A stretch of DNA of 64,000 nt from Escherichia coli (GCF_048403405.1 NZ_CP183129.1); one strand, 5' to 3'; shown: positions 46,082 to 46,169, counted from the first letter of the stretch. A program made the numbers and translations. Notes: generated by a model not told the origin, from the sequence alone.

Positions 46082-46169
46082 CTTTTTTAAATTGCCCCTA
46101 GATGAATGCACGGGCGGAGAGGAAATTCCCCTTCGCCCGTGTCAGTATAATTACCCGTTTATAGGGCGA

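Follow-up and report, generated by a model that had tools for sequence, protein, structure and literature searches.

A conserved GC-rich RNA hairpin between dnaK and dnaJ of Escherichia coli as a probable leaky intra-operon terminator and protective 3' stem

The 64,000-nt stretch of Escherichia coli DNA analysed here (hereafter the window) carries dnaK and dnaJ on its minus strand, separated according to the ORF boundaries by 88 nt (46082-46169), which is exactly the spacer length given in a preliminary description made from the sequence alone. That description had also placed a GC-rich imperfect inverted repeat in the spacer, and the sequence quoted for it, ACGGGCGAAGGGGAATTTCCTCTCCGCCCGT, was located at 46140-46110 on the minus strand. 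The features of the locus are collected in Table 1. In the MG1655 RefSeq record the genes occupy 12163-14079 (dnaK) and 14168-15298 (dnaJ), and the region was found in 5424 of 5426 complete E. coli genomes, with at least 99% identity in 5358. The spacer of EC96, the single divergent E. coli strain examined, is identical to that of the window. The dnaK gene of EC96 (NZ_CP060748.1, 325105-327006) is 15 nt shorter (1902 vs 1917 nt), and the deletion sits in the query-covered part of the 3' coding region.

Table 1. Features of the dnaK-dnaJ locus in window coordinates
Feature	Position	Strand	Basis
CCCCATTTA, -10 element, putative sigma-32 promoter upstream of dnaK	48208..48216	(-)	sequence read; promoter assignment presumed
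dnaK CDS, 638 aa	46170..48086	(-)	ORF list, sequence, RefSeq annotation of matching genomes
dnaK stop codon TAA	46172-46170	(-)	
H1, small predicted hairpin from the dnaK stop codon	46148..46172	(-)	MFE folds, alignment A1
Rfam RF02031 (tpke11) match	46082..46159	(-)	cmscan, 69.6 bits, gathering score 43
H3, conserved GC-rich hairpin	46108..46143	(-)	inverted repeat, RNA fold, covariation, covariance model
AGGGG, likely dnaJ Shine-Dalgarno	46095-46099	(-)	putative assignment; 13 nt before the ATG in E. coli
dnaJ ATG	46081-46079	(-)	
dnaJ CDS	44951..46081	(-)	translation, ORF list, RefSeq annotation
In vivo RNA 3' end, ...CGCCCGUGCAUUC-3'	46104	(-)	Term-seq, MG1655 14145 (+), PMC7815308

The AGGGG motif is the sole conserved purine-rich motif ahead of the dnaJ start in 19 Enterobacterales; two Pantoea (L010, L017) place it 6 nt from the ATG, compared with 11-13 nt in Enterobacteriaceae, and the likely Shine-Dalgarno sequence is positioned 10-14 nt past the stem of the hairpin. 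A GTG at 46109-46111 (minus strand) is in frame with dnaJ and would yield a 386-aa ORF (44951..46111), yet this extended start was rejected because its position falls within the 3' arm of the hairpin and because DnaJ proteins of different species share the N-terminus MAKQDYYE. A promoter scan of the coding strand gave no promoter-like site in or near the spacer. On the plus strand, a sigma-70-like site at 46041-46068 (TTGGAA, 16 nt, AATAAT; 9/12, a consensus match only) lies antisense to dnaJ and is directed into the spacer. Besides, a hokC/sokC toxin-antitoxin locus (44545-44697, plus strand), which matches the Rfam family sok (RF01794) with 119.5 bits, is situated about 250 nt downstream of dnaJ, across the interval 44698-44950; the IS186 element present between dnaJ and hokC in K-12 MG1655 is absent from the window, which therefore does not come from MG1655.

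The spacer corresponds to a catalogued element. Its match to RF02031 covers the full length of the model (positions 1-77 of 77, E 2e-14), scores above the gathering threshold and lies in the dnaK-dnaJ spacer. The Rfam search that the preliminary description had suggested thereby confirms its statement that a small RNA, tpke11, has been annotated in this spacer of K-12, and the supplement of Adams et al. (2021; PMC7815308) likewise lists 'tpke11' under the EcoCyc gene id G0-8893. Between dnaK and dnaJ, the present RefSeq record of MG1655 has no tpke11 feature. As a candidate sRNA, tpke11 is said to originate from the comparative screen of Rivas et al. in 2001. Since the hairpin was also noted earlier, e.g. 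for Sodalis (PMC6887450), and the element is catalogued, its existence as such is already known. Locus, sequence and central hairpin agree with those of Rfam tpke11, without any sequence difference, whereas the label of an 'sRNA gene' is unsupported: the 3' end, the context and the comparative data described below favour an element that belongs to the dnaK-dnaJ mRNA and acts in cis. Most likely, what has been catalogued as tpke11 RNA represents the 3' part of dnaK mRNA or one of its decay fragments, and not a regulator in its own right.

A repeat finder returned two arms of 16 nt each (46109-46124 and 46126-46141) that are 88% complementary. In the RNA fold, the lower stem of H3 (CACGGGCG/CGCCCGUG) consists of 8 consecutive pairs, 7 of them G-C, and is continued by the upper stem AGGGGAA/UUCCUCU with one A.C mismatch, one G.U pair and a loop of 3 nt, so that the stem totals 15 pairs with one mismatch. 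Together with a short tail, H3 folds at -24.7 kcal/mol (z -5.4, 0/200 shuffles) and is a stable GC-rich stem-loop of the kind required of intrinsic terminators, and the RNA of the whole spacer reaches -32.7 kcal/mol compared with -19.4 +/- 3.1 kcal/mol for dinucleotide shuffles (z -4.3, 0/200). As the antisense strand of the E. coli hairpin folds equally well (-26.0 vs -24.7 kcal/mol), the strand was assigned from the comparative data and the mapped RNA end. The predicted hairpin H1, which begins at the dnaK stop codon, has the arms UAAU-GCCC ... GGGU-AUUA, of which GCCC and GGG are kept in 17 of 19 Enterobacterales; it was chosen by RNAalifold for 9 Enterobacterales, with pairs that are invariant and do not covary. 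An antiterminator formed by a 5' CGCCC and the GGGCG of the hairpin 5' arm was also considered and dropped on sequence, because 5 bp cannot compete with the 15-bp stem and H1 forms first.

Conservation was analysed with a protein-anchored scan of one genome per species, which retained at least 80 loci with a DnaJ N-terminus among the 600 candidate matches listed; among these, a DnaK C-terminus is encoded upstream in 73 of 80. Of the 72 spacers folded (among the matches listed), 66 contain an unbranched hairpin of -15 kcal/mol or lower, which is a description rather than a test, given the long spacers among them. A core hairpin CGGGCG...CGCCCG was present in 18 of 20 sampled Enterobacterales among the matches listed, the exceptions being two AT-rich symbionts with reduced genomes, and the same core was observed, again among the matches listed, in six Vibrio as well as in Shewanella, Aeromonas, Salinivibrio, Parashewanella, Lacimicrobium and one unclassified gammaproteobacterium. 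Alignment A2, made with plain MAFFT from 31 spacers of Enterobacterales, Vibrio, Shewanella, Aeromonas and others with the core hairpin, reveals that 88.5% of the cells of the 15-pair stem are paired, compared with 30-58% when the partners are slid. Compensatory changes affecting both sides were detected in 9 of the 15 stem pairs, and the covariation score of 0.311 was reached by none of 500 shuffles (0.167 +/- 0.014). The invariance of the six core pairs in A2 is partly circular, because the selection pattern required the core. Our own covariance model built from A2, termed R1, finds one locus only in the window, with 47.6 bits in sense and 38.4 bits at the same locus in antisense; the sense strand scores higher than the antisense strand in every species and holds 28 G.U vs 15 A.C pairs. 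The hairpin is under selection as a structure. A CsrA site was rejected, as a GGA in the apical part occurs in some species of A2 and is absent in others.

The comparison also brought up several peculiarities of individual spacers. R1 matches ordinary terminator hairpins ahead of cbpA-like DnaJ paralogues that have no dnaK upstream (L062 1143-1188, L051 and L057; E about 1e-3), and as the weak R1 matches outside the training set include such generic terminators, they were not used as evidence of homology. An additional hairpin, H2, lies between the post-stop hairpin and the conserved hairpin and shows compensatory changes (columns 24-51 of alignment A4). It is carried by Yersinia, Photorhabdus, Pectobacterium, Acerihabitans, Budvicia, Pantoea and Rosenbergiella (L008 1108-1140, L009 335-365, L034 1105-1135, L018, L016, L010, L017 and L013) and is missing from E. 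coli, Citrobacter, Enterobacter and Klebsiella-like genomes. Mangrovibacter yixingensis has a spacer of 247 nt (L007 954-1200), with a structured insert of ~160 nt between the conserved hairpin and dnaJ. The Vibrio spacers measure 197-306 nt and hold the conserved hairpin near dnaK (L019, L020, L023, L026, L027, L030); that of Vibrio bivalvicida (L027) contains seven tandem copies of CUCGAAU at positions of about 95-150. A second conserved block, ...CAAACACCAAGCGG...UUUGCAGUA...UUGGUGACGAAGAAC, is found in the Vibrio spacers within the last 60 nt before dnaJ, and could be a separate control region or promoter of dnaJ.

An RNA 3' end has been mapped in the spacer in vivo. The Term-seq data of Adams et al. 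(2021; PMC7815308) place it at MG1655 position 14145, which we transferred to the window by means of an identical 61-nt sequence and the MG1655 dnaJ start at 14168; it lies 5 nt past the stem and 23 nt upstream of the dnaJ ATG. In the same study, the DirectRNA-seq counts upstream and downstream of this end were 1085 and 351 in untreated cells, a downstream/upstream ratio of 0.32, and 1076 and 435 with bicyclomycin, corresponding to a Rho score of 1.25 that is not significant, and the end received an intrinsic-terminator score of 4.33, where values >3.0 are predictive. The published data thus contain a Rho-insensitive in vivo 3' end a few nucleotides after the stem. This end appears once in the three-condition curated 3'-end table, and its Rho and terminator scores come from the LB OD 0.4 data only (PMC7815308). 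In a northern analysis of dnaK, Stead et al. (2011) observed a main band of 2.1 kb containing dnaK only (PMC3082872), and a proximity-ligation RNA contact map displays a sharp discontinuity between the coding sequences of dnaK and dnaJ (bioRxiv 10.1101/2025.09.11.675593). An RNA that runs from ~48201 to 46104 would be about 2.1 kb long and matches the size of the published band. The start of such an RNA relies on the -10 element upstream of dnaK, which we take, from the known sigma-32 consensus, to belong to its sigma-32 promoter.

In Salmonella, dnaK mRNA was 2.5-fold more abundant than the spacer and dnaJ mRNA in low Mg2+, while in high Mg2+ dnaK, spacer and dnaJ mRNA were equal (Chan et al., 2025; PMC12077118); attenuation in Salmonella is hence not constitutive. 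The same authors reported that the half-life of dnaJ is shorter in a PhoP-dependent manner, the stability being altered for the dnaJ part alone, stated that the Salmonella spacer contains no sequence resembling an intrinsic terminator, and left the mechanism open (PMC12077118). The preliminary description had proposed that the structure acts as an intra-operon processing or stability element tuning the DnaK:DnaJ ratio, and had named uniform dnaK-dnaJ coverage without transcript ends in the spacer as what would speak against it. The published Term-seq and DirectRNA-seq data reveal the opposite, with an end at 14145 and a coverage that falls from 1085 to 351; together with the 2.1-kb dnaK-only RNA, they support the proposal.

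The tail that follows the stem differs widely between lineages. Parashewanella has a canonical U-run (UUUUAUCGUU), Haemophilus likewise carries a U-run (UUUUGGUGU) with dnaJ 600-700 nt further on, and in Rodentibacter the tail is UUUUCGUGU and dnaJ follows after about 450 nt; the tail of the unclassified gammaproteobacterium L074 reads UUUGUGUG. Two Enterobacteriaceae, Enterobacter sp. BIGb0383 and Klebsiella sp. BIGb0407, have the tails UUUAUUCAUAUU, a U-run, and UUUAUGCAUAUU, respectively. The Vibrio tail is intermediate (AUGUUUGU), that of most Enterobacterales is U-poor (GUGCNCGCAUGUUAAGGG), the Citrobacter type is CACGCAUGUU, and the E. coli tail is U-poor as well (GUGCAUUCAUCUAGGGG), with 4 U in 9 nt directly after the stem (CAUUCAUCU). 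A simple terminator scan that requires 5 T in 8 did not call the E. coli site, and E. coli has no U-rich tract right after the stem such as intrinsic terminators possess. A score of the d'Aubenton-Carafa type, computed with modern energy parameters and serving as a relative index only, was -15.9 for the E. coli hairpin, +10 to +28 for canonical U-run tails, +2.9 and +12.5 for the two Enterobacteriaceae, -7 to 0 in five of the six Vibrio (-35.8 in L023), and -9 to -47 in the other Enterobacterales. As the score of Adams et al. (4.33) exceeds its cut-off and the scan and the value of -15.9 fail, the U-tract of E. coli appears borderline rather than absent. Nevertheless, the tract falls short of that of a classic terminator, and for this reason we do not class the hairpin among the canonical ones.

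In Pasteurellaceae, Parashewanella and related Gammaproteobacteria (L024, L039, L043, L050), the terminators of dnaK share with the E. coli hairpin a GGGCG-U ... A-CGCCC stem core directly downstream of dnaK. These terminators possess a UUUU run, whereas the U-run of E. coli appears decayed, and in Pasteurellaceae dnaJ is 450-700 nt away, whereas in E. coli the Shine-Dalgarno sequence of dnaJ lies within ~10 nt of the hairpin. The R1 E-values of the short Pasteurellaceae hairpins, 0.005-0.2, are only suggestive of homology with the E. coli hairpin. Judged by these sequence features, the hairpin of the enterobacteria is similar to the dnaK terminators of related bacteria and probably descends from them. 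The simplest reading would be that it is an ancestral dnaK terminator that was weakened in the enterobacterial line, in which dnaJ, without a promoter of its own, moved to within ~25 nt of the hairpin.

We consider it probable that some RNA polymerases terminate without Rho at the weak tail and that the stem then blocks 3' exonucleases, which would give a message for dnaK alone its 3' end within the operon. Polymerases that start at the dnaK promoters would transcribe H3, which would behave as a weak and leaky intrinsic terminator with a poor U-tract, and a fraction of the complexes would stop without Rho a few nucleotides after it, at ...GUGCAUUC. Whatever generates the end, the stable stem with its single-stranded tail of 4-5 nt would shield dnaK mRNA from 3' exonucleases. 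As dnaJ has no recognisable promoter in the spacer, it would be made from read-through transcripts only, and dnaK mRNA would become more abundant and more stable than dnaJ mRNA, contributing to an excess of DnaK over DnaJ. We infer that termination generates the end and that dnaK mRNA gains stability from the hairpin, with the ratio of the proteins set in consequence; the terminator score of 4.33, the Rho-independence and the homologues bearing U-tracts weigh in favour of termination, and the U-poor tail and the Salmonella result in high Mg2+ weigh against constitutive termination. The literature searched yielded no mutational test of the hairpin. In addition, we entertain, as a speculative and on balance improbable extension, that the hairpin is a deliberately weak and condition-sensitive terminator, at which termination would increase, and the DnaK:DnaJ ratio change, when ATP or Mg2+ is low. 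Release would then depend on the rate at which the next nucleotide is added, the RNA ending in ...CAUUC and the next base being A. If so, the uncoupling of dnaK from dnaJ that Chan et al. (2025) reported to depend on PhoP and low Mg2+ would be explained directly in cis, and the range of gammaproteobacterial tails from U-run to U-poor would represent evolutionary tuning of a set point.

Termination is not required if the operon is always transcribed as one dnaK-dnaJ RNA, which would be cut by an endonuclease in the spacer, either by RNase E in the A/U-rich stretch past the stem or by RNase III in the stem, and trimmed from the 3' side back to the protective hairpin, with the dnaJ part decaying faster. 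A tail of 4-5 nt past a stem is typical of exonuclease stalling. The E. coli tail has just this length, and its U-poor sequence escapes the terminator scan; moreover, dnaK mRNA rises ~2-fold without RNase E, and dnaJ RNA is increased in the RNase III mutant only (PMC3082872). Because a tail of 4-5 nt fits termination and trimming alike, sequence tools cannot separate the two. However, the terminator score of 4.33 lies above its cut-off of 3, the homologous hairpins of relatives carry real U-tracts, and we found no cleavage site mapped to the spacer; dnaJ does not occur in the main text of the published map of RNase III cleavages (PMC6212723). We therefore regard processing alone as rather unlikely. 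An RNase III site was set aside as a candidate in its own right, since that main text offers no supporting cleavage data. Such sites comprise ~two helical turns of duplex and a mapped staggered cut, and the stem has about 15 pairs with a mismatch; the higher dnaJ RNA level of the rnc mutant (PMC3082872) may be an indirect effect.

Little credence is given to tpke11 as a genuine trans-acting sRNA, which would have its own start or be cut from the 3' end of dnaK and would base-pair either with mRNAs of other genes or with the dnaK-dnaJ transcript. Both Rfam and EcoCyc list it as an sRNA, it was raised as a possibility by Chan et al. (2025; PMC12077118), and the filtering rule of Adams et al. indirectly suggests a mapped transcription start no more than 200 nt upstream of the 3' end (PMC7815308). 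Gel shifts with fragments of pgsA, prlC and yehU mRNA were obtained in vitro (PMC6172242), but the published target support consists of these in vitro shifts only, and overexpression caused no biofilm or motility phenotype (PMC4606813). Furthermore, the spacer and the sequence just before it yielded no promoter-like site, the RNA lacks the U-tail typical of Hfq-dependent sRNAs, its sequence strictly co-occurs with dnaK-dnaJ and is conserved as a hairpin rather than as a single-stranded seed, and tpke11 has been dropped from the RefSeq listing. Very improbable, too, is a translational control of dnaJ in which GCCCU, two nt past the dnaK stop, forms a helix with the Shine-Dalgarno sequence AGGGG that turns the spacer into a single closed domain, to be opened by terminating dnaK ribosomes or by heat, so that dnaJ translation would be coupled to dnaK or to temperature. 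This helix is drawn in the MFE structure of the isolated spacer, and 77% of its cells pair in 19 Enterobacterales compared with at most 58% when the partners are slid, yet 89 of 500 shuffles pair as well, and covariation gives the helix no support. Pairing of the Shine-Dalgarno sequence with the 5' segment is predicted with a probability of 0.97-1.0 in Photorhabdus, Rosenbergiella and Citrobacter werkmanii, in which blocking of the first 13 nt is predicted to free it, whereas in E. coli the probability is 0.09 with flanking coding sequence and the local hairpin wins. RNAalifold picks H1, the covarying H2 and H3 for the 9 other Enterobacterales and leaves the Shine-Dalgarno sequence unpaired, and the reduced-genome symbionts retain the hairpin and the Shine-Dalgarno sequence but lose GCCC. 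Finally, the 6-bp core CGGGCG/CGCCCG is a perfect DNA palindrome and the two E. coli strands fold comparably, as would be expected if the locus acted as DNA, for instance as the operator of a dimeric protein, as a site of recombination or as one of a family of extragenic repeats. We find this hardly believable: the substitutions in the upper stem are compensatory and preserve pairing but not sequence, G.U pairs outnumber A.C pairs on the sense strand, R1 scores the sense strand higher in every species, and an RNA 3' end maps directly after the hairpin. The element is single-copy in the window, where the core pattern gave one match (0.29 expected by chance), compared with the many copies that characterise REP elements.

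The cell requires different quantities of DnaK and of its co-chaperone DnaJ, and how Salmonella uncouples the expression of the two genes in Mg2+ starvation was left unexplained in the 2025 study (PMC12077118). The hairpin is likely to be the site of this uncoupling, because a Term-seq 3' end that had gone undiscussed, the 2.1-kb dnaK-only RNA and the probable kinship with the dnaK terminators of relatives coincide there, and this makes it a simple target for mutation. What is added here is modest, namely the covariation of the hairpin across several orders of Gammaproteobacteria, its apparent relation to true dnaK terminators, and the link between the undiscussed Term-seq end, the 2.1-kb RNA and the Salmonella question. 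It sharpens a narrow question and does not introduce a new kind of element.

Leaky intrinsic terminators inside operons set the ratio of upstream to downstream products and are a class known from 3'-end mapping in E. coli and B. subtilis. The dnaK-dnaJ hairpin resembles them in its GC-rich stem, in a Rho-independent 3' end a few nucleotides past it, in a coverage drop of ~3-fold, in a downstream gene that lacks its own promoter, and in the canonical U-tracts of its homologues in relatives, whereas it differs from them in that the E. coli U-tract is poor and fails simple terminator rules. Protective 3' stem-loops, for their part, stabilise the upstream segment of polycistronic mRNAs, as exemplified by the REP-stabilised malE of malEFG. 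As in that system, expression is high for the gene ahead of a stable hairpin and lower for the gene behind it, and the upstream-only mRNA predominates, whereas the tpke11 hairpin is single-copy and not a REP element, and the stabilisation is in its case a presumed one. By analogy with both systems, the hairpin would come closest to a leaky intrinsic terminator within an operon that doubles as a protective 3' stem-loop.
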